Virus record (IMG/VR): IMGVR_UViG_3300010429_000098
Coordinates: 2,281 to 66,280 of that record
From: a virus
Taxonomy: Duplodnaviria > Caudoviricetes
Reading direction: 5' to 3' (one strand)
DNA length: 64,000 nt
Shown here: positions 3,108 through 45,339 of the stretch, in pieces
How positions within the stretch are numbered: the stretch's first letter is position 1
How the letters are laid out: every line of letters begins with the position of its first letter
Notes under the pieces: generated by a model
What the model was told of the DNA's origin: nothing
Databases searched by the model: none
The model's input: the letters and a program-made list of their open reading frames with translations, nothing else
Position numbers and translations under genes: made by a program

Positions 3108-5693
3108 ATGGCAGACATTCGCATATCTGAGTTTGACTTATATAATCCTCCAGCAGGATTGACTGGACAGGAATTACTTCCGATAGTTGTGGACGAAGGT
3201 GTGCCACCGCTAGTAGATTTAAAAAATAAGAAGGTGACTGTTTCTCAGTTAGCTGGCAGTAATAACGCCGGCCTAAAGACTTTAACCACCGCTGCAGGCT
3301 CTGCTGGATTCGTAAGTGAATACAGGTCAAATGATCCTAATTATCCTTACGCGTCTGAAAATGCAGATTTTACTATTACTATAGCTAGCCCGACAATACT
3401 TCGCGTAGAGGCTACAGGCCCTGTTATATTTACAGATGCAGATAACTATTTCGATCCTGCTACGCCAATTGTTGTTGAGTTTCCTGCCTTTGATATTGAT
3501 GTATCACTCATTGCCGGTGTACCAGTAGGAAATCATACATATTACATTTATATAAAGAAAGATGCGTCAGTACAGGTTGTCAGTGCACCAATATCAGGAG
3601 ATCCTGAGATTTGTAGACTTGGGTCCGTGATTCTAACTAATGATGGTATTAACACCACTATCAATACTACCAGTACCATGGGTGTTATTGTTAGACCGAA
3701 CTTTTATAGAAACAATACACTGTATAATGTAACGCAGGCGACACTAATTCAAGGTTCAATAGTCCCTAGAGCAGACTTGTCTATGAATTTAGGCAAGGCG
3801 ATTATTCGAGGAGAGTCAGTCGACTTTCCGAATATCCCAATAAATGCAAAAGATATTGCTGCAGCTAATAATGTACCATTCATTTATGCAACGCCTACTA
3901 TTTTAGATCAACCTGTATTGCCTCCTCCTGTATTAGTCATAGATCCTAATTCTTATTGGGATGGAGCTGCAATTGCGATAGTGCCAGATAACCCACCTGT
4001 TATTCCTCCTGCAGTATATAAAGAGCCTGCAACAGTTCAACGAGTATTAATGAACATTCGTGGTGGTATTGTAATTCAATACGGATCTGTAGTCTATGCT
4101 GATCTTGATGCTGCAACTGCATCTATTAGTACTGAATCTTTCAACAATACATTTACTCCGGACTATTGGTCAGAATTAGCGCGCATTGCAGTGGCTAAGA
4201 ATGCTAATGCATTGAATAACGTAGACATGGCTAAGATTCTGAACACTTCAGAAATTGGTGGGTATACCTCGTCTACAGCAGCACCAGCTGTTAATCAGAT
4301 ATTCGGAACACCTAATCAAGTAATAGCAGATTCGCCAATTGGTTCTGTTACTCTATCCTTGCCCCAAGACATTGGTATTACAAGTAGTCCTACTTTCAAA
4401 AATCCGACTGTATCTGAATTTCCAACTGATGTTTTGCATGCTGTAAATCAACAGTATTTACTCGATGTTATGTCAGGCACAAACCAAAAGGGTGTCGCTG
4501 TCGCGGTATCTACAGCAGATGCAGTGAATGGTCTCATAATTGCAGATGATGTACAGTTGGTTGAAAATGATCTCGTATTACGAAACTCTGCAACACGCCC
4601 GGAACTCAACGGATTCTATGTTGCGCATGCAGGTGCTTGGGTTAGACATATCGCAATGGACCATTATGACGAATGTCCTAATGCACAAGTTTCAGTGTCT
4701 GGCGGTACGGTGTATACCGGAACTAGGTGGTTTTGTACTTCGCCAGTGGTGGGTGTTATTGATGTGGATCCAATTAATTGGCTGCAACTAAGTACCGGCG
4801 GGCTGCCTGAAGCTCCTATGGATGGTAGCATTTATGGACGTAGAAATGCTGTCTGGACTGATGTTAATGGTGCAACTGCATTCAAACTACCAGCTGTGTG
4901 TGCTACTATTTCAAACTTGGCGGGTTGTGTCTTTAATGCTGCTACGAATACTTTAACAGGGCCTAAAGAAATTCTTAACATGGACGGCATTTCTCCTAAT
5001 ATAGGAGATCGTGTTCTTGTTAAAAATCAAACACCACCAGCCCACAATGGTGTTTATGTAGTTACAGTTCTTGGCACTGCTGCAATAAACTGGGAGATGC
5101 GTAGGACTAGTGATTGCGATACTTCTATGAAGTTATCTAGCGCTAATATCCCTGTTCTAATGGGTAACGTGCAGGGTGGTACTTCTTGGTCTACATCTTT
5201 CAAAGGTACAGACGTTCTCAACGGAACTAGTATGTATTGGATGAGGCAAAGCGGCTCTGCGCATTTCCAGTTATGGAGAAATGCAGGAAATACAGCTACG
5301 AATGGAGTTATATTAGATGTGCCGTGGGGGAGAGCAGACATTGATCCCTACGAAACATGGAATATCGCAGCACCCACTAGAGTTATTATTCCATTTACAG
5401 GGATGTGGAGTTTTAGTGGTAACCTTACGTTAGCCAACTTAGGCGCCTGGAACGTAGGTGTAAGAGAGGTTTGGGTAAGTATTCCCGGTAGAGGTAGCTG
5501 TGCGAAACTAGTATATTATGCACCAATGGGCGAACCAATTAATGCACAGCGAGTAGAGCTTCACTTTTCAGGGCAAGCGTGGTGTAACGCCGGAGATCAG
5601 ATTAAAGTGCAATTTTGGCAAAATTCCGGTGGGGATATTAAAATTGGTCCTGAAGTCGGCTCTAATCAATATTTTATTGGTTGTTTAATGTAA
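3108..5693 (+). CDS. Tail-fibre-like virion protein
   Basis: 861 aa; two copies of the D.VL..NQ....NG.Y module (NDLVLRNSATRPELNGFY; GDRVLVKNQTPPAHNGVY), EAPMDGSIYGRRNAVW linker and a beta-rich C1q-like C-terminus. Confidence 0.65.
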   Translation: MADIRISEFDLYNPPAGLTGQELLPIVVDEGVPPLVDLKNKKVTVSQLAGSNNAGLKTLTTAAGSAGFVSEYRSNDPNYPYASENADFTITIASPTILRVEATGPVIFTDADNYFDPATPIVVEFPAFDIDVSLIAGVPVGNHTYYIYIKKDASVQVVSAPISGDPEICRLGSVILTNDGINTTINTTSTMGVIVRPNFYRNNTLYNVTQATLIQGSIVPRADLSMNLGKAIIRGESVDFPNIPINAKDIAAANNVPFIYATPTILDQPVLPPPVLVIDPNSYWDGAAIAIVPDNPPVIPPAVYKEPATVQRVLMNIRGGIVIQYGSVVYADLDAATASISTESFNNTFTPDYWSELARIAVAKNANALNNVDMAKILNTSEIGGYTSSTAAPAVNQIFGTPNQVIADSPIGSVTLSLPQDIGITSSPTFKNPTVSEFPTDVLHAVNQQYLLDVMSGTNQKGVAVAVSTADAVNGLIIADDVQLVENDLVLRNSATRPELNGFYVAHAGAWVRHIAMDHYDECPNAQVSVSGGTVYTGTRWFCTSPVVGVIDVDPINWLQLSTGGLPEAPMDGSIYGRRNAVWTDVNGATAFKLPAVCATISNLAGCVFNAATNTLTGPKEILNMDGISPNIGDRVLVKNQTPPAHNGVYVVTVLGTAAINWEMRRTSDCDTSMKLSSANIPVLMGNVQGGTSWSTSFKGTDVLNGTSMYWMRQSGSAHFQLWRNAGNTATNGVILDVPWGRADIDPYETWNIAAPTRVIIPFTGMWSFSGNLTLANLGAWNVGVREVWVSIPGRGSCAKLVYYAPMGEPINAQRVELHFSGQAWCNAGDQIKVQFWQNSGGDIKIGPEVGSNQYFIGCLM

Positions 5694-5703
5694 GGAGTAC
5701 GAA

Positions 5704-5745
5704 ATGGCACGTAAACCTAAAGGCAAGAAGCCTCCAGAGAGATAA
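5704..5745 (+). CDS. 13-codon mini-ORF MARKPKGKKPPER*
   Basis: Strong RBS TAAGGAG 7 nt upstream; stop 4 nt before the HNH ATG at 5750. Confidence 0.35.
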   Translation: MARKPKGKKPPER

Positions 5746-5749
5746 AATT

Positions 5750-6316
5750 ATGCAAAATATTAATATAGTATTTAACTTTATGAGTTGTTCAACATCTATC
5801 GATGACAGCAAAGATCGGATATGTGAACAATATAAAAAGTATTATTACTATGACAATGGTCATTTATATCGAAAAGAAGATAACAAGCGAATGGGCTCTT
5901 TAATACCTAGAGGATATTTAATATTTCATGATAAATATTGGATAGAGCCTATTCTAGGAAATAAAGACAGTTGTACTAAGATGGTTGCTAGAATCATTTA
6001 TATAATAACTGTTGGCCCGATTCCAGCCAACTACCAAGTAGATCATATAGACAGAAATCGCTTAAATAATTTATCAAGTAACTTAAGAGCGGCGTCGGCT
6101 TCTGAAAATGTTAGAAATCAAGATTGGTCAAATAAAAGATCAAGGTATGTTGGTGTTGCATGGAATCTTAACTCGGGTAAATGGGCTGCGCAAATATGGA
6201 TTAATAAAAGAACGAAGTATCTCGGGGTATTCAAGAAAGAGGAAGACGCCGCGATTGCGTATAATAACTTTGTGATAAAAAATAAGTTAGATCGCACGCT
6301 TAATACTTTTGAATAA
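5750..6316 (+). CDS. Free-standing HNH homing endonuclease with AP2-like domain
   Basis: QVDHIDRNRLNNLSSNLR and SRYVGVAW...KWAAQIW...YLGVFK.EEDAA.AYN; ATG 5750 preferred over the in-frame upstream start at 5681. Confidence 0.85.
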   Translation: MQNINIVFNFMSCSTSIDDSKDRICEQYKKYYYYDNGHLYRKEDNKRMGSLIPRGYLIFHDKYWIEPILGNKDSCTKMVARIIYIITVGPIPANYQVDHIDRNRLNNLSSNLRAASASENVRNQDWSNKRSRYVGVAWNLNSGKWAAQIWINKRTKYLGVFKKEEDAAIAYNNFVIKNKLDRTLNTFE

Positions 6317-10234: not shown

Positions 10235-10506
10235 CCGATAAAAACGCTCCTCCTGTTGTTGCTGTTCTTCCAGTGACTCCGCCTGCAGCACCTGAGACTC
10301 CGATTCCTCCTGTTGTTGCTGTTCTTCCAGTGACTCCGCCTGCAGCACCTGAGACTCCGATTCCTCCTGCTACTCGACACCCTTCTTTCTATATTCCAGC
10401 AAAATGGGAAATCACTTCTTCTCCTGACGGAATTCGTGCTTACAATCCAGATACCAATGACACTTTCGAAGGGCCGGTAGATGAATTTAACGCAATGCTG
10501 AAGTAA
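10231..10506 (+). CDS. Pro-rich small protein with a tandem 19-aa duplication
   Basis: PPVVAVLPVTPPAAPETPI twice; ATG overlaps the upstream TGA. Confidence 0.65.
   Translation: MTDKNAPPVVAVLPVTPPAAPETPIPPVVAVLPVTPPAAPETPIPPATRHPSFYIPAKWEITSSPDGIRAYNPDTNDTFEGPVDEFNAMLK
10248..10369 (+). repeat. Perfect tandem repeat, 57-nt unit, about 2.1 copies
   Basis: cctcctgttgttgctgttcttccagtgactccgcctgcagcacctgagactccgatt at 10249-10305 and 10306-10362. Confidence 0.95.
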
Positions 10507-10895: not shown

Positions 10896-12491
10896 ATGGG
10901 CATAGTGAATGCTGCGCAAACAAATAAAGGAGTCGCTGATCCTGCTGCGATGTACGAAAGTATGCGCCCTTCATGGGAAAAGTCTCGTGCAGTGATCAAC
11001 GGTCAACAGGCTACAAAGGACTTTGACACGATATTAGATACAATCGGTTATAGAAACATGCTGATCCCTTTCTCACCATCAATGAGTCAGGAGCAGTATA
11101 ATTTCTATAAGGCTGAAGCAGAACTTCCAGGTATTGTATCACAATACTCTCGGATTATTATCGGTGGTCTTTTACGTAAACAACCTACACTTGTACTTCC
11201 CCCAGGTTGTCCAGAGGAAGCGCATGACTGGATAATGAATCAGTTTACGCAAGATAATCTACCATTGATATCTTTCCTAGACGATGTTCTATGGGAGGAA
11301 GTCCAAACTAGTAGACCATTCGTGTATATAGATTATCCTAAGATTGAGAATCCAGATGCAATGGATTCTGCAGATTTCGAAGGAATTAAACCATATCCTA
11401 TTATATGGTCAGCAGAAAAAATTATCAATTGGCGAATGGCAGATAAAGCTGATGGTACTCAAACTTTCGACCGCATCATTGTAAGAGATTACGAAGAGAA
11501 GTATGATGAGCCTGGCGGTCAATTCGAATTTCATCCTCGATTCATCGATACCGTATTTGTTCATGAGCTAGTTGACGGTAAGTATCAAATTCGAAAGTTC
11601 CAGAAACAAGACAGTGAGGCTGCGGTCATTACATCAAATGGCGAAATAAAGAACATCTATTCACAAAACACACCTAAGGGCGCGTATATCCTCGTAGACA
11701 CAGATACGAGTATTCAAATGAATGGAGAGCCATTAACGGAGATTCCTGCATGGCCTCTGAATGGCAGCGCTAGAGTTGTTGAACCAATGATGACGGCTCT
11801 TATTGATAGGGAGATTGCACTTTATAATAAAATAAGCCGTCGAAATCATCTATTATACGGTGCTGCTACCTATACACCATATCTTGCCTCAGACATGGAT
11901 GATGCAAGTTTTGAGATGATGGTGAATAGCGGGCTTGGCTCCTGGTTGAAGATTAATAAAGGCGACGAAGTAGGTATTTTGGAAACGCCTACGGCTGCAT
12001 TGCAAGACATGGAGAAAAGCATAGCCGCTACACTAGATGAAATGGCTAAGCTAGGCATTCGAATGCTTACTCCAGATACCGATCAATCTGGCGTGGCGTT
12101 GCAAATTCGTAATGCGGCTCAAACATCTCAACTAGGAACACTTAACACTAAGATTAGTAACACAATGGCAAGTGTTATTTGTTTTATGGTTAATTGGCGC
12201 TATCGTACCAATTTCCTAGTATCTGAATTTGATTTCGAATTAAGTGCTGATTTCTCGCCTGTTCCAATCGGTGCGGACTTTATCAGACTTATGACTGAGT
12301 GGTATGAGAAGGGTCTTATTCCGCGTAGTGAATGGCTAAATATGGCAAAGGCAAACGATCTAATTACTCCCGACTACGATGATGACGAGGGTAAGAAAGA
12401 GATTAATAGTGATGAGCTAATTGTTACTACTAAGGATAAGGCTGAATATCAAGCACAGGTTAATGCTGCCGGCGCAGCCCCTGTTGGCTGA
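10896..12491 (+). CDS. Portal protein (DUF4055-like)
   Basis: 531 aa, first gene of the head module; YESMRPSWEKSRAV.NG, LYNK.S...HLL...A..TPY, ILE.P..AL..MEK patterns typical of siphovirus portals. Confidence 0.85.
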   Translation: MGIVNAAQTNKGVADPAAMYESMRPSWEKSRAVINGQQATKDFDTILDTIGYRNMLIPFSPSMSQEQYNFYKAEAELPGIVSQYSRIIIGGLLRKQPTLVLPPGCPEEAHDWIMNQFTQDNLPLISFLDDVLWEEVQTSRPFVYIDYPKIENPDAMDSADFEGIKPYPIIWSAEKIINWRMADKADGTQTFDRIIVRDYEEKYDEPGGQFEFHPRFIDTVFVHELVDGKYQIRKFQKQDSEAAVITSNGEIKNIYSQNTPKGAYILVDTDTSIQMNGEPLTEIPAWPLNGSARVVEPMMTALIDREIALYNKISRRNHLLYGAATYTPYLASDMDDASFEMMVNSGLGSWLKINKGDEVGILETPTAALQDMEKSIAATLDEMAKLGIRMLTPDTDQSGVALQIRNAAQTSQLGTLNTKISNTMASVICFMVNWRYRTNFLVSEFDFELSADFSPVPIGADFIRLMTEWYEKGLIPRSEWLNMAKANDLITPDYDDDEGKKEINSDELIVTTKDKAEYQAQVNAAGAAPVG

Positions 12492-12556: not shown

Positions 12557-13153
12557 ATGACAAACGTTTCTAATTTCGTATTTATAATGACGCCTGAGAT
12601 TATAGAAAAATGTGCGCGCATTAAAGAAGAGAAGTTAAACAAGGCTTCTCCTGAAAACCTATGTAAAGAGTACGCCAAATACTATTATTACAATAATGGA
12701 AAATTATATAGAAAGGCGGATGATAAATTAATGGGTCGCCCTGACAAGGATGGCTATTTAATCTTTAATGACAAATATTGGTGCGGACTGGACGTCGGTA
12801 ACTCTATGAAAACACCGGTTAGGAAGGTACATAGAGTTATCTATATGCTGACCAAAGGTCCTATACATAATGATTTGCAAATTGACCATATCGATCGAAT
12901 TCCCGACAACAACTATCCAGATAATCTGCAATTAGTTGATCATTTGAGTAATCAACATAATAAAGATTTGTCAAAACAGACGTCAAAATATTACGGAGTA
13001 TATAAAAAGCCTTCTGGAAAGTTTCGAGCAGGTGTGTATGGTAATAAGGTTAAGATAAATATAGGCACGTTCGAAACTGAGATCGAAGCTGCAAAAGCAT
13101 ACAATGATTATATAGTATTGCATAACTTAGATAAACGACTGAATCTATTATGA
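12557..13153 (+). CDS. Free-standing HNH homing endonuclease with AP2-like domain
   Basis: QIDHIDRIPDNNYPDNLQ; SKYYGV...GKFRA...IGTFETEIEAAKAYN; paralog of 5750-6316. Confidence 0.85.
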   Translation: MTNVSNFVFIMTPEIIEKCARIKEEKLNKASPENLCKEYAKYYYYNNGKLYRKADDKLMGRPDKDGYLIFNDKYWCGLDVGNSMKTPVRKVHRVIYMLTKGPIHNDLQIDHIDRIPDNNYPDNLQLVDHLSNQHNKDLSKQTSKYYGVYKKPSGKFRAGVYGNKVKINIGTFETEIEAAKAYNDYIVLHNLDKRLNLL

Positions 13154-16100
13154 TATATGATGTCAATACCGATATTTCAGACAAGTCTATTGACAGAGCC
13201 ACGATGCTGCGTCTATATGAAAAGAAAAGTGTCGGCAAAGTTATATTAATAATTGACGGGCATTCTGTTCGAGTTGATAAGCTTATTAAATCATCTAATC
13301 TACAAGGTAAGTCGTTCAATGCATTTTTGAAAGAATTAGACAAAGAAATTGCTGGTACAATGGCACAAGCACACACTACAAGCAGTTCAGATCTAATTCA
13401 GCTGTATGGCAATCAGTCTGCATACACAACCAGAACACTAAATTCTGTAATCAGTGATGTGTGGAGAGTGCAACCACCTCCACGACACATAGCCGCTGAG
13501 GTGGTTCTAACTACTCCCATCTATCAGAATAAAACATTATCTGAGGGATGGGCAGGTATCGGAAGAAATGAAAAGATACGAATAGAAGCTATTATTCGCA
13601 AGGGCATTGCTGAGGGTCAAACAGAAAAAGCAATAGCTGATACTGTCTTTAAAACTGGTTATGGTGTCACAAGGAATCAAGCTAGTGGATTAGTCGTTAC
13701 GGCAACTACTCATGTGTATTCAGAGGCTGATTATCAAGTATATAAAGCGAATGAAAAGGCACTGCAAGGGTGGCAATACGTCGCTGTTTTAGACTCGCGC
13801 ACTACACCGCTATGTTCTCACTTGGATGGTAAAATATTTCCCGTAGACGATAAAAAGAATTTACCTCCGCGTCATTGGTATTGTCGATCTACTACATTAC
13901 CGATTGTCAAATCATACGATGATTTAAGTAAATTAGAAGGCGTGGCTCAAGTACGCAAAAGAAATTTAGAAAGACTTACGCCTGAACAGATTACTTGGTA
14001 TAGCGGGCAGAGTCCTATGAAAGAATCCTACAATGAATGGTTAAAACGTCAACCAACCGATGTACAACTACGTCATCTAGGTGATACAAAGAAATTAGAG
14101 CTATTCCGAAGCGGACAGGTTAGTGTGGACCAATTCACTAGAATTGACGGTGAAGCTGTCGGACCAAGAGAACTTAACAGATTAACAGACACGCACAATA
14201 CACTGCCTCAGGATAGTCGTAGATTCGCTATTGCTAAGGAAAAGCTTGACACTATCAAATTAGGTGCAGCAAGGCCTGAAGAAATATACGAGAATCCTGA
14301 AATAAAGAAGGCACTTAAGGAGTATTATCTGTTACAAGCAGGTGAACTAGACGGTACTTTGTCAATGACAAATTATCGTGGCACCTTACTACACAATAAG
14401 AAGAATACTCGCAATCGCGTATTAATTAGTCCTCCGCGCGAAGATCAGTTAAAATTCAACCCAATATCTGGTAGATACGAAGATGTGCGAATGTATCAAC
14501 CGAATCCAGAAGTGTTTGCTAACACGCAACGATTGATTAATGAAAGTACTGATCTTCTTCCCAAGGACAAGGAATTTCTAAACACATTTATTGCTGGACT
14601 CGAGGATACGATGTCTATCAATGAACGTGCAGCAGTAAGCGAGAATCTACGACTGACTATAGAACGTTTTAGAAAGAGTCCTGATCCGCAACCCTGGGCT
14701 AACCTTAAGGCTGTACTTAATGGAGAAATGAAGTTCTCTGTTATGAACGTATCTGATTACATGGAGACACAGTTGCGAAAGGATTCTGATTTGTTTGCTA
14801 GATTGGGCCAACTGAACTATCTTGACCCAGTCCTTGGACCAACTCAGTTGCATACACTTAGTCGTGACTTCACCAAGAATATCATTAAAAAGAATGCATG
14901 GGAAGACCGTACCGCGCCAAAAATTGGTAGAGAGTTGAAAGGCATAATTAATACCAAACTTCCGCTTAAACTTCGTGTGCGTATTAAAGAGAAAGAACTT
15001 TCAGCTTTTTATACTAAGTTCGCTAAACGCTTGGCAATGAATGATACTCCAGACAGAGATCAACTTGCGGTTGCGCTAGGCAGGGACTTGTATAATGCGG
15101 CTAACTATCGTGGATCTAGAAATCAATGGTGGGAACTTGGTGTAAAAATTCTAGATGATGCCAAAGGCAAGGGATTCTATGAGGTAGAAACCTATGGTGT
15201 CCAGAAAAGAAGAATGAAATCCAGAAATGGTGGAAGATACTTTTAAATTACTAGAAGCTTTATGCGGTGACGCATATCGAATAACCATGTGAATTCGGTG
15301 GAACTCCTAAACGTTATAGGACAATACCGAGCCAAGCTTCAATTCAGTAATGAATTGTTGAAGGTGTAACGACTATCGAAAGGGCGCAATCAAAGCGTAA
15401 CCGAATAGAGTAGAGATCTAGTGATCTCGAAGCGCATGGCATCTCTTGGAGAAGGAGAGATGATGATATAGTCTGGTCTGTATAGTAATATACAGAAGTG
15501 CTGGTCAGGCACAACATTGAGTATACTATGATAGACGAAATTTGGAAAGCATTTGATAATTGTTACGACGTTAGCACGCACGGGCGTGTTAAGAATACAC
15601 GAAGTGGCTATATATTAAACCCGTTCTTAGACAGCGATGGGTACCCGTGTATTACGTTGTACGGAGTGACTGCAAAAGTGCATAGGATGGTTGCAAAAAC
15701 ATTTATTCCAAATCCCGATAATTTACCAACTGTAAATCATAAGGATGGCACAAAGACAAATAACTTTGTGATTAACCTGGAATGGGCCAGTGTTGCTGAT
15801 AATAACGCACACGCGGGCTTTATGGGGCTAATGCCGAGAGGTGTCGAGTGCCACACTGCGATTCTCGATGAAGAAATGGTTATTGCTATCAAGAAGCTGT
15901 TCGTAGAGTACAAGCTAGGTGACCGCGACATCGGAAGAATTTTCGGTGTCAGCGAAGGAACAGTACATAACATACGAATAGGAATCGCATGGAAACATGT
16001 GGCGAGCGACCTAGTATTCAATGACAAAGGCCCGAATGGCAGAGGTGAATTTGCAAAGAAACTTAGCGGCGCCGATATTCCGATTATCAGAAAAATGGCG

Positions 16101-19072
16101 GCAGATGGTTTGAATAATCAAACAATTGGTAGAAAATTTAATGTAGCACCGGCTACTATAAGGGGTATTCTCTTAGGTAATACCTGGAAAAATTATTAAT
16201 TTTAACAATGCCTGACAAGCACTGGTTGCAAGTAACGATTGCAACTGAACACAACGGGACAATACTACGATACGTTCTCAACCAATGTACGAGTTGTAGA
16301 CAAGCGTTTACTAGAGCAAGCCAAAACAACGCGTGCTGTAGATGTAGCCTATCGTATCGGTGTAACTGATGAATTTCCAAAAAATCGTTTAGTGGTCAGA
16401 GAAGGCTACAAAACCTACTTCATAGATAACGGACCACTAGGATATGTTGATACTCGTTTGCCTATTACAAGTAATTCTTCTTTTGGTACTTTTCCTGTCG
16501 AAGCGGTTACCAAAGGTATGGCAGATGCGCTTAACCATGCTGCTTCTACTAAGTTCACTATCGACCCTGACTTTTATGACTTTACACAAAAACTTCTAGA
16601 GTTCCAAGATGATAAGGGTAAAGCTAAATTCTATAACGATCTAAATGTGTATAGAACACACATTATAGAACGTGGAGACGCGTATGAACGATTTAAAGCA
16701 ATGCAATATTTCCGAAATGGGAATAAAGCTTTTAGTAATACACCGTTTCTAGATCATCGCGGCCGTGTATATGATTCAGGATTAATTGGAGCACAAAGTG
16801 GTGCTACATTCAGACCCTTCTTGAATTCAGCATTGTCTAAACCGTTAACCGAAGAAGGTTATTTAAATCTACAGGATAAAATAGGTCAAGTATTAGGTGG
16901 CGGAAGCGATAAGTTTGAAGGATTGCAAAATGCGATGTCTATTAAAGGTAGACAACAAATTGCTCTTAACTATCGTGGAAAACTAATTGAGCTTGGTGAT
17001 CAGATGCGCAGGGGTAAGCCTAATGATATTCGCAAGATTCTTGAATCAGAGTTCTTTGCTGAAATAGACGCAGAGGAACAAGGCGAAGTGATGCGCTTAG
17101 CTTTGGAGATGAGCAGAATTAATGAATTTCTAAAAGGCGATTTCTCTGACTTGAAAAAATTGAATAGCTTTAAGACGTCATTAGCGTTGGAGCAAGATGC
17201 TTCGTCTTCTGCTGCTCAGATCATTGCGATGACAACTAAGAATAAACAGCTAGCGCAGATGTCTAATGTGGTGCCAACTAATACAAAACAACGTTTATAT
17301 GATGAGGTTGCTGCAGATACTTTCAATGATCCTCGCTTTATTGAGTTGAATAAGAAATTGAATCTGACTCAAAAGGATTTACAGAAAGGGGCCAAGGGAC
17401 TAGTAATGGTAAAATTTTGCCATTGTAAAACACCGTTAATTGCTGGAAACACTCTATGAGTCAATCAGCAGCCAAGCTTTAACAGAAATGTTTCAGAAGG
17501 TTCAACGACTAGAGCAGACGACCTTAAAAGGTTATGTAGCTCGTACAATCCAAGTGGATTGGAAACGCGGTGGTATAGTAGAAAATACTATATAAGATAT
17601 AGTCTAATCTATATGGTGACATATAGTAAGACAGCTACTGTTTATAGTAGCTAGTCTTTCATAGAATTAACGACTCTATGTAATATTAATGAAAAGGTTA
17701 TGGGGCAGGTGATCGTACGGGCATTCTCGCTGTAGAGAAAAAGGTTGGTAAAATATTAGCAGCTGGTGAGGACACTCTTGTTGTAAAGGCTGTAGATCGC
17801 GATCTTGTCTTAAATGAGATCTCAGCACGTATGGCTAGATACGAGAAATTTGATCCAGATATGTACAATGAGCTAAAAGCTCTACGTAAAGATGTGAAGG
17901 ATGTCTTTAACAAGGGCATTCCGCCTGGTGATGAAATAATGGATCAGCTGTACTTCCTAGATCCAAAGACACGCGAATTCATCGAAAAACTTGGCCAAAC
18001 GTATGATAGAATCGTTACTCCTGATGATATAGCTGCGATGGCTAAGATCATGACAGAGTATATGCGTGCAAGAGCTCCGATTATGGATGACTTTACACGT
18101 GTATTAGGACGTTTAGCACAAGACTTTATGTTGAAAGCCAAGCCTAAAGAAAGTAGTATCGATTACGGTGATTTGCTTGCGACTCTAATTGCTGGAGAAA
18201 AGAAACGTGGTACTAAGTTACCTGGATGGCTTAACCGTATTCTCGGTATTAAAGATGAGGCAATACGTGACAAGCTACTTAGAAGGATTCCTGGATATAT
18301 TCCTGGAAGCCCTCTAGATATTGCTATTAGAGGTAAAGAGGCGCCTACAAAGCGTAGAATGGGCTTTAAGCTTGGTAAGTTTGATTTATATTCAGAAGAT
18401 ATAACAAAAGGAGTTGAAATCGGTATTGCGAATAAGTTGCCTAAGACATGGACAACTGTTCCTTGGGTGAACTTTAATGGTACAGTATTGGAACAAGAAT
18501 TTTTACAAGTATTTGAAGAGAAATTGTGGTATAAAGACAAAGACGGTAAATGGGTTGTTAATATCTTACAGATAGATCAGAAAACTGATCCTACCACTTG
18601 GGAACAGTTACGTAACAAAGAGGGTAAGATTAATGCAATCGCTGATACTAATAAAGTAAGAACCAGTTATGGCGTTAATGCTAACCATAGCAATGATGCC
18701 GTAATTGTTAATCAATACCACTTATTTGGTAAGAAAAATAAAATACCTACTGCTTCAATTCACGATGCGTTCTTTAATCATGCTGCAGATATAATTCCTG
18801 TGCGAGATGCATTAAGAACTGTATTTGCAGATACGTTAGAGACAAACGTGTTGAAAAAGACTTTGGATGAGATGTTAGCTAGAGGTCTACCAAAAGAGTT
18901 ATACGATCAATATCTAAATGAGATGATTGATAAAGGTATGATTCCTGTTCCTGGTCGCTCTGTTGTAGGCGGCAAAGTAATGACGAAAGATGATATCCTC
19001 ACAAGGGAGGATATTCTAGCGCCTATTGATAGATCTTTCAGAACTAACAGATATTTTTACGGAGTGAATTAA
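13150..19072 (+). CDS. MuF/SPP1-gp7 minor head protein fused to a T7-family single-subunit RNA polymerase; spliced join(13150..15243,16257..17410,17692..19072), 1542 aa
   Basis: MuF motifs WQYVAVLDSRTTPLC..LDG and PPRHWYCRSTTLP; RNAP motifs DHRGRVY, motif A LEQDASSSAAQ, spliced motif B AKGLVMVKGYGAG, ANHSND, motif C IHDAF. Exon lengths 2094+1154+1381=4629 nt form one open frame. Confidence 0.85.
15244..16256 (+). mobile_element. Group I intron with HNH ORF (intron 1 of the MuF-RNAP gene)
   Basis: P GAATTCGGTGGAA, Q AATACCGAGCCAAG, R GTGTAACGACTA, S GATATAGTCT; P3 CCATGTG/CGCATGG; P9 hairpin; terminal G16256; the junction gives GGRYF|GQYY. Boundary is slightly less certain than for introns 2 and 3. 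Confidence 0.85.
15528..16199 (+). CDS. Intron-encoded HNH homing endonuclease (NUMOD4-HNH-HTH type)
   Basis: EIWK...Y.VS..[41 protein letters not shown]; two C-terminal HTH-like repeats; sits in the P9.1 loop (GTGCT-GGTCAGGCA pairs with TGCCTGAC-AAGCAC). Confidence 0.88.
   Translation: [223 protein letters not shown]
17411..17691 (+). ncRNA. ORF-less group I intron (281 nt; intron 2 of the MuF-RNAP gene, in RNAP motif B)
   Basis: P1: exon AATGGT pairs with GCCATT (U.G at the splice site); P AATTGCTGGAAA, Q AATCAGCAGCCAAG, R GTTCAACGACTAG, S AAGATATAGTCTAA; P10 AAAA/TTTT; terminal G17691. Confidence 0.9.
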
Positions 19073-19078
19073 TAATAA

Positions 19079-19160
19079 TCCAGCTAACTACTGGAACTCT
19101 CACAAGGCATTACTGCCTTAAAACGAGATTGTATCTCAAACTAACGCGAATTGTATTCGC
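19079..19160 (+). promoter_or_regulatory. Cluster of four small hairpins in the scaffold-gene leader
   Basis: TCCAG/CTGGA, AAGGCA/TGCCTT, GAGAT-TGT-ATCTC, GCGAAT-TGT-ATTCGC; the last abuts the GAGG RBS. Confidence 0.45.
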
Positions 19161-19174
19161 AGAGGACATTTAAA

Positions 19175-19891
19175 ATGGCTGGAACCGAAGAAACTATTGT
19201 TGAAACGAAAATTGATCCTGTTGTCGAGACTGTTGTTGATGACAAAGAGGAAGAAAAAACTATTGTCGTTAAGCATGTCACCAAAGACGACGACATGGTG
19301 GACAAACTCGTTAAAGATCGTCTTGGAGAAGAGTTAAAGCCGATTAAGGGTAAATTGGATAATGCATATAAGGCACGAGATGAAGCTCTTGCCAAAGTTG
19401 CAGAATTCGAGCGTCGCGAGAAAGAAGCTAAGATCAAGCAATTGAACGAAGAAGGCAAACATCGGGAAGCCTACGAATTACAATTGCAAGAACTCAGAGC
19501 ACAAAATGATGCGTTGAATAAGCGCAACATGGAACTCTCTCGTGATGTAGCAGTCAAAGACGCTTTGAAGTCGTATTCTTTTAAGAATGACAAAGCCTCT
19601 GAACTGGCCTTTAAAGAAATTGTTGCAGAGCTCGTACAGAATGAGTCCGGTACGTGGGTACACAGAACTGGTATTTCTGTTCGTGATTATTGCGAAGCTT
19701 TCTCAAAAGACGAGGATCAATCGTTTCTGTTTAAGCCAAAGGCGAATAGTGGCGGTGGAACGACTACTACTACAAATAGTAGCGGAAAGCCCGCTGCATC
19801 TGGTAAGAAATCATTGTTCGATATGCCGCAGAGTGAAGTTCTTGCACTTGCAGCTGCAGGCAAAATTGGACCTAACCAACCTCCTATTTAA
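19175..19891 (+). CDS. Capsid scaffolding protein
   Basis: Acidic N-terminus, coiled coil, FLFK...SGG linker; directly before the major capsid gene; ATG 19175 has the RBS. Confidence 0.75.
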   Translation: MAGTEETIVETKIDPVVETVVDDKEEEKTIVVKHVTKDDDMVDKLVKDRLGEELKPIKGKLDNAYKARDEALAKVAEFERREKEAKIKQLNEEGKHREAYELQLQELRAQNDALNKRNMELSRDVAVKDALKSYSFKNDKASELAFKEIVAELVQNESGTWVHRTGISVRDYCEAFSKDEDQSFLFKPKANSGGGTTTTTNSSGKPAASGKKSLFDMPQSEVLALAAAGKIGPNQPPI

Positions 19892-19906: not shown

Positions 19907-21148
19907 ATGACTCAAATTGTCAACAACATTAACGGTGCAAATACCTATGCACTGCAAAACGCTCTCGGCGCATACTCCGATGAAGCGTACACGAATGCCA
20001 AGAAGTTGTCTGGCACCGGTATTGTGAGTTCGAACCCGAACATCGATACCTCTACCGAGACCTTTATTGGTCAAGTTCGTTGGTTCAAGCCCCTGAATCC
20101 CACCATCAACGTTGCATCTTTGACGAATGCTGCTAACGGTACTGGTACTAGCTACCAATCCGACTTCAGCTCGTACGTCAAGACTGTGCGTACGCATGGT
20201 GCAACTCAAGTTAATCTGCAACAAGTTATCTCTCAAGTGGATGGCCTGGCAAAGATTAGCCGTGACTTCGGTGAGACGCGTGGTCAAGATGAGCATAACT
20301 CTATCCTGACTGTGCTCAAGGGTGTCGCAATCACTGAAGCTCTCATGGGTGCAGCTAGCGGCTCTGGCGCTGTTGGTCTTGGTGGACAAACCTTCACAAA
20401 CGATCCGACTGATAAACGCTTTGGTTTCTACGTTGATCTTGGCGCTTCTAAACTGGTTGTGCCGCCGTCGTCTACTCAACAAGGCGCCCAGCGTGCTGAA
20501 GGCTTCTTGAATGCGATCGGTATGGCCTGGAAAGATTATGAGCCGGAGTACTGCTATCTTGTGGTCTCGCCTGAAGTTCTGGCTTCGCTGCGTTCCGCCA
20601 ATCTGGTTGATGAAACCAAGGTCGTTGAGGCCAACGTGGTGTTCGACACGATCTTCTCTGGCAAGTTCCGTTTGATCCAGACGCGTGCTAACCAAAGTAT
20701 GTCTACTGCCGAATTGACGATGATCAATACTGGTGGTGGTGTGGATATTACCGGTGTGAAGACCTCGTTCCTGGTTCTGCCTGGTGCTATTGCTATGGCA
20801 CCTCTGTCCGTGCCTACTCCGGTGGAAATCTACCGCGATGCGCGTTCGTATAACGGTGGCGGTTCTACCGATATCTGGTATCGCTGGGGTAACGTGTATC
20901 ATCCTGGTGGCTACGATTGGGCTGGTCTGACCACGGTGTTTCCGAGTGATGCTGAGTACAAGTACGTTGTGGATACCGCAGTGTCTGGTACTGGTGGTTC
21001 GGCAGTGCCTGCCGGTGTCCCGCAGCCCCTGGAGACTTACACTAACGCAGGTGGTGCTGCAACTCTGCAAGCTACGGTTCGTGGTACCTGGATTCGTAAG
21101 GCATCTTCGGCTCTCAGCCTGGGTATCCTCCCGATCTTTCACGCTTAA
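19907..21148 (+). CDS. Major capsid protein
   Basis: 413 aa, position after scaffold, markedly higher GC and host-optimised codon bias, GG.TDIWYRWG...HP.G C-terminal motif. Confidence 0.85.
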   Translation: MTQIVNNINGANTYALQNALGAYSDEAYTNAKKLSGTGIVSSNPNIDTSTETFIGQVRWFKPLNPTINVASLTNAANGTGTSYQSDFSSYVKTVRTHGATQVNLQQVISQVDGLAKISRDFGETRGQDEHNSILTVLKGVAITEALMGAASGSGAVGLGGQTFTNDPTDKRFGFYVDLGASKLVVPPSSTQQGAQRAEGFLNAIGMAWKDYEPEYCYLVVSPEVLASLRSANLVDETKVVEANVVFDTIFSGKFRLIQTRANQSMSTAELTMINTGGGVDITGVKTSFLVLPGAIAMAPLSVPTPVEIYRDARSYNGGGSTDIWYRWGNVYHPGGYDWAGLTTVFPSDAEYKYVVDTAVSGTGGSAVPAGVPQPLETYTNAGGAATLQATVRGTWIRKASSALSLGILPIFHA

Positions 21149-24309: not shown

Positions 24310-27300
24310 ATGGCCGGCGTTATAGTCGATGTCAACACACGTGCAGATTCAGCTAAGAAAGATCTAAGCGATATAAATAAAAGCTTGTCTGATATTATTA
24401 ACAAAGCTGCGAGATCAAAAGAAGGATTAGGAAAGATAGATAGTTCACGTTTTAAACTGTTTAACAAGGCAGTTAGCGACACAAACAATAACTTTAAAGA
24501 ATTAAAGAAAACTGGTGAATCTTCCTTAAATGGGGTAACTAAATCTGCGGACAAAGCCACTGGTGCGATGAGTGGTCTGAAGTCTGCGGTAATGAGTCTG
24601 GGTGCAGCATTTGCTGCGATAACTACAATCACTGTATTCCACAAAGCTGCAGATGATTTAACGAATATTCAGAACAGACTTAAATTAGTAATTACTGATA
24701 CGGATAATCTTATCAGAACACAGCAGAAATTATTTGCAATTTCAAAAGAAACTCGCGGTAATTTTGCAGATACTGCGTCTTCATTTGTGGACATGTCTTC
24801 TGCTCTAGAAAAGGCCGGGGTAGGTCAGCAAAAAGTATTTAAGGCGATAACAACAATTCAACAAGCTTCGGCTCTGTCCGGAAGCTCGATGGAGTCTATT
24901 CGTGCTGCAATGATGCAGCTAGGTCAAGGTATGGCGTCAGGCACCATTCGTGGTGAAGAATTGAATTCGGTGATGGAACAGATGAAGTATCTGGGCCAGG
25001 GTGTTGCGAGGGAGTTAGGTCTTAATGCAGGTTCTTTGCGTAAATTTGCAGAGGAAGGCAAACTAACTACAGAAGTTTTTCTAGGCGCTATTGAGAAAAT
25101 GTCGGCTAGAACCAGTAAAGACTTTGCCAATACTCGAGTTACTGTAGGTGTTGCGCTATCTCAATTGAAGAGTACACTGATGTATTCTTTAGGCGATTTC
25201 AATCAATTCTACGGATTTGCTGACAGATTCGCTAAAAGCATTTTAAAAGTCTCAGACAGTCTGAATAGTTTATCCAATGCTGCAGTAGGGGCTATTTTCG
25301 TACTTAAGAATAATATTAGAAACTATATACAACAGTTTGATATATTTAGCGCAGCAGAGTTGACTCTTAAATCAGCGATAAAATTAGAGATAACACCGTT
25401 AGATGCATATGATACTTACACATATTACAAGGATGTCAAATCTTATATTGACAAATTTAGAGAATTCGTAGGTAGTCAAAAAGAGACAAGGATAAAAGTT
25501 AAAGCTCCGGAAGTAGAGTTACCTAAACTTAAGAAATTTGATCTTCAAGGAAAAGAGATACCTGATGAGATCATACCCACAGAACGGATTAATACATTAA
25601 CCGCTAAGCTTGACCAATTAAAAGCAACATTTAGCGAGTTGGGTCAGATTGCAATGTTGTCCGGGTCAGCCGTATTGATAACATTCCAGAATATTGCAAG
25701 ATTTCTTCCTCATGTCGTAGGCCCTGTTATCACAATCGGATCTCGTATAGAATCTGCATTTAAGTCCTGGAGAGCTGCTATGACCGCAGCTACATATGAC
25801 GCATTAATGCCATTCGTTCGCAATCTACAAGGTATTGAAGAATTCTTAACATTCTTCCAGACAAACGACACCAGATTAGAGCGCGCTTGGGTAAATATGT
25901 TCAAGTCAGACTCTTTAGTAACCTTCAAAGAAAATCTGAAGGCATTAAATGAGCAACGTAGAAACATCAAGATGAATGATCAGGTGTTCTTATTCACAGA
26001 AGCGATCCGTAGTCTGCGTGAATTCTTACATCCGGTAGAGAAGACGCTTATAATGCTTAACCTCATGGATAACAGGTTATATAGCATTCGTTCGGCGCGG
26101 TTTGATCGTCTATTGAAATACTTCGAGAACATTGGTCTTGTCGTAAAGCGCATATATCAAGACGTGTTCGCTACAACGCTAGAGCCTATAATCGCTAAAG
26201 TAGTGGCGAAAGTAGTGGCATACTTCCAAGCCATTCAAGATGCTCTTGCCGATGCTTTTAATGCAGCAACAGGATACAAAATAGGCAATGCATTTGTCAA
26301 CGGATTAACTAAAGGTTTCAATGCGTTCTTTAATGGTTTGCGCAAACTAGAAGATCGCGAAACGTTATGGACTATCCTATTCCCAGAGAACACTAAAGAT
26401 AAAGTATTAGCTGCTGCAGCCGGTGTCTTTAAAGCACTGTGGGAATTTATTAAGGGAATATTTAGTGGAATAGGCGGCGGTATTCTTAAGAATACTACGA
26501 GTCCTATGGAAGGATTCGCTAAAGGAATGTATCGAGCGTTTGTAGATGCATTCAAGCCCATAGATTCCTTTGTCGAGAAATGGTTTAAGGTCTTATCCAG
26601 AAAATTAGCCAACACAAGAATTAGTCTAATATTTAATTTTAATAGAAATGGCTTCGAAGAGTTTCAGTTATTCATGGTTAACATGTTTCAAAAGATACTT
26701 GATACAACCATGGGACCTTTGGCTGCAGTAGAAAAGAGAATAGCCTCGTTTGCAGAGTTTGTTAAACGTGCATTCTTTGATATTTATGATGCAGTTGTCG
26801 GACATTCTTTCTGGCCTGATACCATTAATGGCGTTATTAACTATACCACCAAATTGTTTGAAACTGAGAGTTTATTGACTCAATTCAAAAACATGGTGTT
26901 AAAGGTATTTAAAGAGATACAAACGAGTCTAGCTTCTGGCAGTACTAAGTTTGGCAGCGCTATCATTGAATTTAAGGCTAGGATTAGCACCGTTGATTGG
27001 GGACAGGCAGCAAAAACGTTTAGTACGACTATAGGTTCTTCGATTATTGCAGGATTTGCATTAGCCTTTGGAAATGGCTATCTAAAAGTAAGCGCAGTAG
27101 GCTATTTCATTAATCTATTTAACGCATCCTTGAGCGGTGCATTGGGCGCTTTTAGTCCAGTTCTCGCAAGTGCATTAGGTTCTATAATGGGAGATTTAGC
27201 GAGTAATGCAGTAAGATCTATTAATAATATATTAAATGATATCTTTAATTTAATAGGGCCATTCACTGAATCATTCTTCAAATCGTTCTTTGGTTCTTTT

Positions 27301-30300
27301 GGCGAATACCTAGTTAAGGCTCTTAGCCTTGGTCCATTACTGCATACTCTAATTCCTACGATAAGCGGTGCATTTAGCCCAATAATGCGAAGCGTTTCAG
27401 CTGTTATTTCTGTAGTCACTAATAGCGTAACTGCATTAACCCTTGCTATTGCTGGTCTGTGGATCATGCTTAGGAAAAAGGGTGGAAAAGAGATATGGAA
27501 TGTTCTTAAAGGAAAAGAAGATGAATTCGGTAAAGATGGCAAGATAAAGAAGAAGGGCTACGAAGGCATTTTTGGCTTTTTCACGGATAAGATAAATAAG
27601 GGTAAACCAGCTGGAAAAGGGTTATTCGCGAAATTTATAGATTCAATGGAAATTCCTGCTTATGGAGTCGCAGCGGGTTTATTATTTGCTTCGTCTTTTT
27701 TAGAAGGAATTGATTTCCTTGAAGCGGCTGTGTTCGGGATACCTCTGTTAACCGGTGCATTCTTAGGAAAGGGCGCAGGGCAACGTATCATTGGAAATGT
27801 AGTAGGTCTTGCACAGAAAGCCGCTATTGCTGCATACGCTAGCTTTTCAAAGAAACTTCAAGAGCTAACTGGTACCGAAACCATTCTTGCCCCATTATTA
27901 GAGGGAATGAAGCCTAAGCCAAAGAAAATGAAAATGGAGTATTCTCCATTGAGTAATGCAATTGGCAATGTATTCTCTGAAGTAGGTAATTATATCGCTG
28001 CAATAAAAAGCAGAGGTGCCGCATATTCTGATAGAAAAATAGGAATAAAAGATTTATTCTCATTAGATACGGCCCCGTTAATGTCTGAATGGAAGCGGCC
28101 GATTGCAGATCAATTGGATATGTTTGCCGCTGATGGTGCAGCTATTATTGGTAGTAGACAAGGATCTCTTGATTTTGGTCCTATGTCAAATACGAGTAAG
28201 GTTGAAAAGTCTCCTTTAAAGAAAGCTGTTAAGGATCTTGGCGTGACTATCGGAGCTATTAAATTTGGCGAAAGTACGCTAAGTCAAAGAGCTTCTGGGG
28301 TCAGCGGTATTATTGGAGCAATGTTTAATTCGTTTACTGAAAGGTTAAACAGACTAGACCTGTTTAAACGTATCCCACAAAAAGCACAAGAGATGTTTGC
28401 CATGATTGGTAAATACACAAAAGAAGCCTTAGCTACGATGGGTGCAGGTCTAGAATTGCTTGGAAACTTATTTAAAAATAAATGGGTATTTGGTATTGCT
28501 GCTACTGCACTATTCGTCGGTACCGCTAACGCTGCTTCAGATGCAACTAGCGCCATCTCAGCTCTTGTAGAAGTAGTAGGATCACTTGCAATAGTTCTCG
28601 GCACTGCTGCAGCCGCTCTGTATGCACTCGGCTCTGCTAAGAAAATCTTTGGTGCCTACAAAATAGGAGAAGAAGCTTTCAGACGTAAGGAGGCTATGAA
28701 GAATCTTGCAGCACGTGGTGTGAATATAGAAGCTATGCAAGCTGCTGCTAAAGGCGCTGAATATACAGGAGAAACGGATGCTCGAAAGAAATTTAAAGAG
28801 AATAAAAAGGCACGATTTGTAGAGTTTGACAATGAACGCATCGCCGCAGTAGAAAAGTTACGTAATGCAAATAATGAGAAGCTCGCTAAAGCAATGGCTG
28901 GCGGAAATTTAAGTCAGTCTGCCGAAGCTATGATGCGTAAAGCTGCGATATTAGAGGCTACTACGTTAAACACTAATCTGAAGACAGCGTTTAAGAAGAA
29001 AGAAGCCTTATTGTTAGAAGCAGCTATCGCAGCAGCAAGAGCAGCTCCGCAAAAGCGTATTGATGATATAATTGCTGATGCTATGTCACAAATTGGATCT
29101 AAAGACGCTAAAGCAGCCGGTCGTGCCGCCGTATTCGATGCCGTAAAGGAAAGAATACGTGGAATTACATCAGCTATAGCAGGTCTGATTGGTGCAGCGG
29201 GTAGTATTGTAGCGGCGCCTGGATTAGCGCTAGCATGGTGGGTAGAAAGAGTTGCGGCTGTAAAGAATTTTGCTAATGCAAATGATATAGCAAATAAGGC
29301 TGCATCTGCTATGCGATTGGCTGTTGCTGGGATGGCTAATGCTGTTGCTATGATGAAGGCCGGTGAAGCTACTGCTGGAATGATCGCATTTGCGAAAGCG
29401 ACATGGTCAGCTGTTGCCGCTACTGCAGCACTATCAAAGATTAGTGCCGTTGCCGCCGCTAAAAGTAGTGGAACTCTTCTAAAGGATATTGCAAGTTCGA
29501 TAGGGTCTGGCACATGGAAAGGGCTAAAAGCAGGTTGGGAAAAGCTATCCCCACAGTTGATGAAAGGCCTTAGATTGCTAAAAGGACCTACTGCCCTAGC
29601 TGGAGGCGCTGTCTTAGCCACCGGTGTTCTAGGTGTTGCTATATTTGGCAAAGGCGAGGGTTTCTTTAATAGGTTAGAGTGGACATATGATAAAATTAAA
29701 TCAATCCTCGGACTTGAAGCAACTACTAAAACTGGTAAGAAGTTTGAGATAGCTGACCAGTTAAAAACGCAGACCATTGGTGGTAAGACTTTAGACTTCA
29801 CTGGTGAAATAAATAAGATTGATTTCAGCAAGGTAACTGACGTACAGCAAACAACATTAAAAGAGGTTGCAGCTACTTACGCGGAGACAATGAAGAATCT
29901 ACAGTCTATGGAAGTAAAGCAGGGCTTTCTTACTACAGAACAGAAAACACAAAGAGACACTGTAGCGACAGAGACTCGTGGAATCTTGATGCGGATGCCT
30001 GAAAGAGCTTCTGCTACAATGATTGCGAGTATGGAGGCGTTAAATAAATCTATGCTTGACGTAGACAATTCAACCTGGGTATTGACGAAAAGATTCTTTG
30101 GATGGACTCCAATACTCAACTCTACAGTCGCAGCTATTAGCTCAGTGCAAGTAGGGTGGATGGCCTTTACAGAGGGTATCAAAAAGGGGCTTGGCTATAT
30201 ACTTAGTACGGTGACGTCATGGCCTGCTATGATAGGTGCTACCTTAGGCCTCGTAGGTGGTCCGATGGGAGCGCTATTCGGCTTCACTGTGGGAGCCATG

Positions 30301-42912: not shown

Positions 42913-42941
42913 GCGGGAAAATTGCCATCTTATATGAAGAA
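42913..42941 (+). promoter_or_regulatory. Candidate phage-RNAP promoter copy 1 (GCGG-N8-CCATCTTATA-TGAAGAA)
   Basis: Immediately after the terminator and at the head of the accessory operon; repeated at 48636 and 50692. Confidence 0.6.
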
Positions 42942-44798: not shown

Positions 44799-45339
44799 TA
44801 GCATGCAATCATATTTTAATAAATGGTTTCATTACAGTAGTGGCTGGCTAATTTGGAAAAAATCACCCGGAGGTACAACAAAGAAAGGAAATCGCGCTGG
44901 ATCAGACACATCAGCGGGGTATCGTAAAATTAGATTGCACGATACTCAGTATATGGAACATCGTATAATTTGGATTATGCACTACGGTGATATTCCTGAA
45001 GGGCTTGTAATCGATCATATTAATCGGATAAGAAATGATAATGTGATTGAAAATCTAAGAATTGTTACGCAGATGGTTAATATGAATAATTCAGTAATAA
45101 CTGAAGAGTCTACTAGTCGATACTCGTGTGTTTCATTCGTAGAAAAAGGAACTAGTTGGCACGCTTGCATACGTCGTAATAAAATAACTGTCGAATTAGG
45201 ATATTACGAAGATGAAAAGGATGCTGCTAGAGCTGTTAATATATTCTGCAGAGATAACGACATTGAAAAATTCAATGATGTTCCAGAACCGTTTAAGGAG
45301 CCTATAAGAAAGGAGCGCAAATACCCATTAATTAAATAA
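44788..45339 (+). CDS. Free-standing HNH homing endonuclease
   Basis: EHRIIWIMHYGDIPEGLVIDHINRIRNDNVIENLR plus AP2-like half; close paralog of 62488-63192. Confidence 0.85.
   Translation: MTNNSMQSYFNKWFHYSSGWLIWKKSPGGTTKKGNRAGSDTSAGYRKIRLHDTQYMEHRIIWIMHYGDIPEGLVIDHINRIRNDNVIENLRIVTQMVNMNNSVITEESTSRYSCVSFVEKGTSWHACIRRNKITVELGYYEDEKDAARAVNIFCRDNDIEKFNDVPEPFKEPIRKERKYPLIK

Follow-up and report, generated by a model that had tools for sequence, protein, structure and literature searches.

A phage minor head protein fused to a T7-type RNA polymerase and interrupted by two group I introns: a candidate virion polymerase

To our knowledge, RNA polymerases (RNAPs) packaged in virions are known from a few phage lineages only: N4-like, phiKZ/AR9-like, crAss-like and P23-45-like. 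N4, phiKZ, crAss-like and P23-45 phages are described as ejecting virion RNAPs and then handing over to a second polymerase, and the ejection of the N4 enzyme is stated in PMC13434306. In passages of the survey by Iyer et al. (2017; PMC5512222), the N4-like RNAP module is confined to N4-like phages, almost always fused to a metallopeptidase, while MuF/gp7 proteins are head components of portal-terminase phages, and domains fused to MuF are predicted effectors delivered with the DNA. Here we describe a gene that combines an N-terminal MuF domain with a T7-type RNAP (MuF-RNAP), at positions 13150-19072 of a 64,000-nucleotide (nt) stretch of phage DNA. This stretch, which we call the window, corresponds to bases 2281-66280 of the 66,280-bp IMG/VR record IMGVR_UViG_3300010429_000098, estimated to be 96% complete. 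The phage sequence originates from anaerobic-digester metagenomes, and a megablast search of its DNA against cultured phages gave no match. Because MuF is joined here to a T7-type RNAP, the phage probably packs a transcription enzyme of its own into its capsid.

The fusion gene is split among three open reading frame (ORF) fragments, 13150-15246, 16239-17459 and 17831-19072. A previous reading of the window from its sequence alone had claimed that these fragments make one 1542-amino-acid (aa) frame once introns at 15244-16256 and 17411-17691 are removed. Joining 13150-15243, 16257-17410 and 17692-19072 does give 4629 nt in a single 1542-aa frame whose only stop is the terminal one, and the claim is borne out by Rfam group I matches at both breaks, by the splice-site rules and by colinear intron-less homologs that cross both junctions without gaps. 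The parts of the gene are as follows.

13150-15243, plus strand: exon 1, aa 1-698, with MuF/gp7 (aa 1-345), a flexible linker (aa 349-354), a bridge of helices and the beginning of the N-terminal domain of the RNAP
15244-16256, plus strand: group I intron 1 (Rfam RF00028), 1013 nt, phase 0, between codons 698 and 699
15498-16199, plus strand: intact HNH homing endonuclease encoded in intron 1, 233 aa (phrog_59, E 1e-50; Pfam NUMOD4, HNH_3 and HTH_38)
16257-17410, plus strand: exon 2, aa 699-1083, with bases 1 and 2 of codon 1083 at its end (phrog_414 RNA polymerase, E 1e-8)
16752-16772, 17193-17210 and 17394-17396: exon 2 motifs, namely DHRGRVY, QDASSS (motif A, with Asp1012) and Lys1078 of motif B
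17411-17691, plus strand: group I intron 2 (Rfam RF00028), 281 nt, phase 2, without an ORF, in the Val1083 codon of motif B
17692-19072, plus strand: exon 3, aa 1083-1542 and the stop codon (Pfam RNA_pol, 26.4 bits; cut-off 22)
17699-17704, 18686-18688 and 18764-18766: exon 3 motifs, namely Tyr1086-Gly, His1415 (ANHSND) and Asp1441 of motif C (IHDAF)

Both introns match the Rfam Intron_gpI model over its full length, well above the gathering score of 50 for RF00028: intron 1 at 15234-15495 (90.3 bits, E 9e-22) and intron 2 at 17401-17626 (79.8 bits, E 1e-18). The 5' exons end with U (15243 and 17410) and the introns with G (16256 and 17691), as the splice-site rules demand; in intron 2, moreover, the exon sequence AAUGGU pairs with GCCAUU of the intron as P1, with a U.G pair at the splice site, and this hairpin is present in the minimum-energy fold (z = -5.4). 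The predicted junctions are ...GATACTTT joined to GGACAATAC... and ...TAATGGT joined to AAAAGGTTAT.... A metagenomic protein that has no intron in its gene and is likewise exactly 1542 aa long aligns with aa 4-1541 of the spliced product (66% identity, two gaps), and nine intron-less homologs are gap-free at both junctions, reading ...YF followed by G(Q/P)YYD... at one and ...MV followed by ..YGAG... at the other. Contigs assembled from the runs of other studies hold the same intron-containing DNA at 99% identity or more, so that the breaks in the gene are not assembly errors. Neither an intron-less allele nor the exon joints occur in the contigs of three anaerobic-digester DNA runs, a result that has no bearing on splicing. 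At the level of the DNA, these comparisons establish one gene with three exons and two group I introns, encoding a predicted protein of 1542 aa, and we infer that the exons are joined in its mRNA.

The MuF part is clear from profile searches. Phage_Mu_F (Pfam PF04233) matches aa 145-249, that is nt 13582-13896, with E 2e-18 and 67.4 bits against a cut-off of 29.6, and the head morphogenesis family phrog_241 matches aa 5-334 with E 3e-60. By these matches, aa 1-345 are a minor head protein of the MuF/SPP1-gp7 type, as the sequence-only reading had recognised. An AlphaFold2 (AF2) model of exon 1, with a predicted local distance difference test score (pLDDT) of 85, consists of a domain at aa 1-345, a low-confidence linker at 349-354 and then helical domains. 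Its nearest neighbours in BFVD are the homolog of phage DSS3_VP1 (E 6e-37) and then minor capsid and head-morphogenesis proteins, including fusions of MuF with ADP-ribosyltransferase and with zeta toxin. Against the PDB (Foldseek, VIA) the exon 1 model gave generic helical bundles only, so we leave the fold of aa 356-560 unclaimed, and an ESM Atlas search with aa 350-698 gave no usable match. The fusion contains the only MuF domain that we count in the 96%-complete record, which has no separate MuF gene. A complex prediction of the portal protein with MuF aa 1-350, both with alignments, scored 0.04, which we take as evidence for neither side.

The polymerase part carries all the T7-family motifs named in the sequence-only reading: DHRGRVY at aa 864-870, QDASSS at 1011-1016, K1078-GLVMVKG-Y1086-G, ANHSND at 1413-1418 and IHDAF at 1439-1443. 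The distance from K1078 to Y1086 is 8, equal to that from K631 to Y639 in T7 RNAP, and these two residues are matched to the T7 pair by this spacing. The remaining assignments come from alignments, which map DHRxRxY to T7 421-427 and D1012 to T7 D537 (hhalign), H1415 to H784, and D1441 to D812. Among 51 relatives, down to 19% identity, the Asp of motif A, two Lys of motif B, the Tyr-Gly pair and the Asp of motif C are invariant, and the His of the ANHSND motif is nearly so. The hidden Markov model (HMM) searches that the sequence-only reading had suggested place both Phage_Mu_F and, in exon 3, RNA_pol (PF00940) above their cut-offs; whole intron-less homologs reach 29-38 bits with RNA_pol. Matches to phage RNAP families lie in colinear order on exons 2 and 3. 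For the fold we modelled a homolog, P0002 (1077 aa), which is 61% identical, covers aa 465-1541 of the spliced product and was modelled with a 51-sequence alignment. The AF2 model has a pLDDT of 86 and a predicted template-modelling score (pTM) of 0.83, and its best Foldseek matches are T7 and mitochondrial RNAPs (E about 1e-18). In VIA, it superimposes on T7 RNAP residues 35-883 with Z 28.9 and a root-mean-square deviation of 3.8 Å over 535 residues (9.2 Å over 638 in the tied top row), followed by mitochondrial RNAPs with Z about 25 and N4 mini-vRNAP with Z 12-18; identity to T7 RNAP in the structural alignments is about 16-18%. Since the model spans T7 35-883, the module, at about aa 565-1542, is by this model a complete T7-type single-subunit RNAP including the N-terminal domain, which agrees with the previous claim of a complete polymerase. 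The conserved residues and the modelled fold together suggest that the fused polymerase is apparently active.

The fusion is widespread. A word-indexed search with exon 3 as the query matched 307 clusters among longer proteins; among the matches listed, nearly all are about 1520-1570 aa long with both PF04233 and PF00940, and the fusion homologs bear the JGI label 'SPP1 gp7 family putative phage head morphogenesis protein'. With an alignment of the RNAP part alone as the profile, an exhaustive search gave 200 representatives at the 50% identity level. When 32 long divergent representatives were scanned, Phage_Mu_F was present in every one and RNA_pol in 20 at E <= 1e-3. The sequence-only reading had stated that homologs always encoding MuF and RNAP separately would speak against it; because all 32 divergent representatives carry MuF, and hundreds of homologs are intron-free single MuF+RNAP proteins, this is not the case. 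Cultured phages that match the fusion are only the Naomviridae roseophages DSS3_VP1 and DSS3_PM1, grown on Ruegeria pomeroyi DSS-3, and EBPR siphovirus 1 is a metagenomic match. In DSS3_VP1, the 1463-aa product of DSS3VP1_00028, annotated as 'minor head protein-like protein' and encoded between portal and coat genes, has MuF at aa 140-243 and an RNA_pol match of 27 bits; RNA polymerase is never mentioned in the papers on DSS3_VP1 that we searched.

A second, stand-alone RNAP gene is present in the early-type region of the same genome, and it is interrupted by an intron as well.

52644-54210, plus strand: stand-alone T7-like RNAP, exon 1 (Pfam RNA_pol, 110 bits)
54211-55006, plus strand: group I intron 3, in the Tyr codon of motif B of the second RNAP (Rfam, 55.1 bits at 54187-54435)
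54467-54952: HNH endonuclease ORF within intron 3 (HNH_3, E 1e-19)
55007-55695, plus strand: stand-alone RNAP, exon 2 (Pfam RNA_pol, 94.6 bits)

Its frame is restored only by joining 54210 to 55007, which gives a spliced product of 751 aa. This aligns end to end with two intron-less RNAPs, one from a relative whose complete genome has 92 kb (55% identity) and the other from DSS3_VP1 (32.5%), and with T7 RNAP (E 5e-58). Motif B is thus interrupted in both RNAP paralogs, at different codons. The fusion and the stand-alone RNAP occur together in three of three complete or near-complete genomes, namely the present phage, the 92-kb relative and DSS3_VP1. With hhalign, the fused module gives E 0.0027 to its paralog and E 0.00015 to T7 RNAP. 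As it is no closer to the paralog than to T7 RNAP, we have rejected the view that the fused module is a recent duplicate of the second RNAP, and the polymerase pair is old and co-inherited. Upstream of the stand-alone RNAP gene, where the early-type region begins, the element GCGG-N8-CCATCTTATA heads gene blocks in three copies (42913-42941, 48636-48664 and 50692-50720), two of which continue with TGAAGAA. Allowing one mismatch, the 10-mer is no commoner than expected by chance, whereas chance does not account for three exact copies that have the GCGG spacer and lie on one strand. These sites are candidate promoters for a phage RNAP.

A conserved element of about 35 nt recurs in all three introns (15464-15498, 17595-17629 and 54404-54438), and introns 1 and 3 have in addition a 27-nt stretch of 96% identity (15357-15383 and 54298-54324). 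Judged by these shared sequences, they belong to a single intron lineage that has colonised both RNAP genes. Selfish elements are unusually abundant in the genome: the 64-kb window contains at least ten genes for HNH-type homing endonucleases, of which two lie within introns.

HNH genes: 5681-6316, 12557-13153, 15498-16199, 44788-45339, 46412-47197, 54467-54952, 56482-57030, 58145-58876, 60808-61260 and 62431-63192

Homing elements typically insert where indispensable genes are most conserved. In relatives of the present phage, the MuF-RNAP genes have other introns or insertions after aa 883 (just past DHRGRVY), at 1079, at 1083, near 1415 and near 1441, and one relative has four Rfam-supported group I introns within this gene. 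As these places coincide with catalytic motifs or adjoin them, they are consistent with a functional active site. The homologs L008, L009 and L001 are interrupted at the site of intron 2, and EBPR siphovirus 1 has an HNH-bearing insert at the identical motif B position, for which Rfam gave no match. In addition, in-frame insertions of about 100-240 aa recur in homologs at two sites near motifs A and B. In three homologs with insertions of 130-240 aa, Pfam found no intein or Hint domain; the insertions may be inteins, in-frame intron ORFs or extra domains.

Interrupted MuF-RNAP loci in relatives: L011, 6007-9571; L008, 2174-3714; L009, 2173-3713; L001, 7147-8001
In-frame insertions after spliced aa about 1105: P0003 and P0100
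In-frame insertions after spliced aa about 991-995: P0006, P0111, P0071, P0045, P0046 and others

One strand carries all the large ORFs of the genome, and the fusion gene stands in its head module, in the order portal (10896), HNH gene, fusion (13150), scaffold (19151) and major head protein (19907).

10896-12491, plus strand: portal protein, 531 aa, two genes upstream of MuF-RNAP (Pfam DUF4055, a portal family, E 2e-8)
12557-13153, plus strand: free-standing HNH-AP2 homing-type endonuclease (Pfam HNH_3, E 6e-12, and AP2)
19151-19891, plus strand: head scaffolding protein (phrog_206, E 1e-8)
19907-21148, plus strand: major head protein (phrog_247, E 2e-15)
24310-34665: tape measure protein, 3451 aa, of which only the first ~400 aa match tape-measure families

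The HNH-AP2 gene is placed between the portal and fusion genes, and its stop codon overlaps the ATG of the fusion at 13150. The portal protein has 1127 homolog clusters, many of which share contigs with MuF-RNAP homologs, and DSS3_VP1 has the same order of portal, MuF and scaffold/head genes as the present phage. The 3451-aa tape measure confirms a long tail and implies a very long one. The small ORF just upstream of the portal gene contains a perfect 57-nt tandem duplication (10248-10361), and a tandem array of 72-nt period (1317-1730) lies within the ORF at 657-2345. Elsewhere in the window, a protein like adenylosuccinate synthetase is encoded at 47202-48335 (phrog_1211, a PurZ-type family, E 4e-51), adjoining a Nudix hydrolase gene. 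The phage DNA may on this basis contain a non-canonical purine, in parallel to the deoxyuridine-containing DNA (dU-DNA) of the Naomviridae, which share MuF-RNAP; the MuF-RNAP class as a whole may be linked to non-canonical DNA, with dU-DNA in Naomviridae and the PurZ-like gene in the present phage.

We propose a mechanism in which the MuF-RNAP gene would be expressed late, together with the head genes, and its RNA would splice itself. A few copies of the protein would be docked on the procapsid portal by the MuF domain, as with SPP1 gp7, and in consequence of this docking the polymerase would be enclosed with the DNA. At the next infection it would leave through the portal and tail with the genome, and once inside the cell it would transcribe the first phage genes with no need of host RNA polymerase or of newly made protein. 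These genes would probably include the stand-alone RNAP, which would then be in charge of middle and late transcription, so that the whole would be a two-polymerase relay akin to that of N4, phiKZ or P23-45, made from different parts. We assign a probability of roughly 0.6 to the entire chain from packaging through ejection to early transcription. That the MuF-RNAP protein is in the virion we consider highly likely. The generalisation that MuF-RNAPs are a large class of virion RNAPs in long-tailed phages, portal-bound, ejected and independent of host RNAP from the first minute, is only slightly favoured by us.

Several points weigh against the proposed chain. We infer the virion presence, the ejection and the activity of the protein from genes and models, and among the runs listed as holding the locus none is on record as RNA that could support the splicing. 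A folded module of about 110 kDa would need unfolding for passage through the portal and the tail channel of a very long tail. A full-length family profile searched against PDB sequences gave nothing at E <= 0.01 (best E 0.035); with so little sequence similarity to solved RNAPs, it is Pfam and the predicted fold of the homolog that carry most of the assignment. At E <= 10 the same search retrieved only T7 RNAP, N4 RNAPII and mitochondrial RNAPs, with the right motifs aligned. The low sequence similarity would be in keeping with a catalytically dead module that serves as DNA-binding or structural cargo of the head protein, as would two further features: motif B and the His motif are separated by an insertion of about 185 aa, and the residue that corresponds by spacing to T7 R627 is Gln. 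We nevertheless regard a dead enzyme as very improbable. Across the family, the catalytic Asp pair, the two motif B Lys, the Tyr-Gly pair and the His motif show no variation or almost none; the model of the 61%-identical homolog keeps the T7 fold in full (Z 28.9); and several of the catalytic motifs have homing introns in them or beside them, as is seen in essential enzymes. The Gln was rejected as a sign of inactivity, because family members differ at this position, whereas all have the neighbouring Lys.

An active polymerase could still act in other ways. It might never be delivered, being a late-gene RNAP merely co-translated with a head protein, made late and working in the cell either after cleavage at the linker or still attached, with at most the MuF part in heads. 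The place of the gene in the late structural operon and the low-confidence linker between MuF and the remainder suit such a role, and two polymerases might simply divide the middle and late genes between them. Known virion RNAP genes such as that of N4 gp50 are likewise late genes, however, and a stand-alone late RNAP needs no fusion, yet all 32 divergent representatives retain MuF and the present phage has no separate MuF gene; nor do Pfam and phrog recognise a prohead protease between the portal and capsid genes. We therefore consider a purely intracellular late polymerase unlikely. About equally unlikely is that the protein is packaged and ejected but has a mainly mechanical or replicative task, pulling the genome in by transcribing it or making the RNA primer for the first replication. 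Genome entry driven by T7 RNAP, and priming by RNAPs, are established for T7 and mitochondria, a tethered position near the portal follows from the MuF domain, and the conserved active-site residues would serve this task equally. It is compatible with early transcription, and both roles would normally coincide; the presence of a second RNAP gene in the early region is most in keeping with an expression relay.

Each known virion-RNAP lineage has reshaped ideas of how phages escape host transcription and the defences acting through it. If the proposed role is true, MuF-RNAP would be a fifth solution, mechanistically distinct and apparently widespread, with more than 300 clusters annotated as 'head morphogenesis protein'. 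Cargo as large as about 1000 aa could then be borne by the MuF scaffold, biochemistry and biotechnology would gain a small virion RNAP of new promoter specificity, and the start of transcription in the dU-DNA Naomviridae roseophages would be explained. The cultured roseophages DSS3_VP1 and DSS3_PM1 would make the class directly testable. Introns in or next to catalytic motifs conceal the gene from standard gene callers. Full-text literature searches, with subscription-only papers outside their coverage, gave no description of a MuF-RNAP fusion, which accords with the earlier remark that no experimental description was known.

Among described systems, the MuF cargo fusions (toxins, MuF-ADP-ribosyltransferase and MuF-RelA/SpoT) share with the protein an N-terminal MuF domain, a portal-side gene and a C-terminal enzymatic cargo. 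The described cargos are toxins, RNases, ADP-ribosyltransferases, alarmone synthetases and others of this kind, whereas here the cargo is a complete transcription enzyme of about 1000 aa; an RNAP is named among them neither in the passages searched in the 2017 survey (PMC5512222) nor in our full-text literature searches. In the MuF polymorphic toxins of temperate phages the toxin is accompanied by an adjacent immunity gene, while in the present phage the cargo is a polymerase and the next gene encodes the scaffold. P23-45, with a polymerase fused to the tape measure, the crAss-like phages with gp66, and phiKZ resemble what we propose here in that an RNAP, either carried by a virion structural protein or being that protein itself, begins the infection and is succeeded by a second RNAP from outside the virion. 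Their enzymes, however, are of the two-barrel, multisubunit type, and that of P23-45 is joined to the tape measure and not to a head protein; the present enzyme is of the T7 right-hand type and joined to MuF. With the RNAP of T7 (Autographiviridae) it has in common the fold over T7 35-883 and all catalytic motifs, but T7 RNAP is an early protein that depends on host RNAP for its production, is free and is not part of the virion, and the present enzyme has the ~185-aa insertion after motif B and an N-terminal extension of 560 aa. As in coliphage N4 (Schitoviridae) with gp50, a single-subunit RNAP of the T7 superfamily stands among late/virion genes and a second phage RNAP in the early/middle region, and the proposed logic of a head-packaged enzyme ejected to start transcription is the same. 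N4 gp50 itself is different: it has about 3500 aa, belongs to a short-tailed phage and has its own N- and C-terminal ejection and encapsidation domains without MuF, whereas the present protein has 1542 aa with an N-terminal MuF, belongs to a long-tailed phage and gives Pfam matches only to Phage_Mu_F and RNA_pol, without a metallopeptidase. The description 'N4-like' in the sequence-only reading is consequently apt for the strategy and not for the family, because in structure the module resembles T7 and mitochondrial RNAPs (Z 25-29) more than it does N4 mini-vRNAP (Z 12-18). MuF-RNAP is outside the N4 virion RNAP family and is a member of both the MuF and the T7-like RNAP families.

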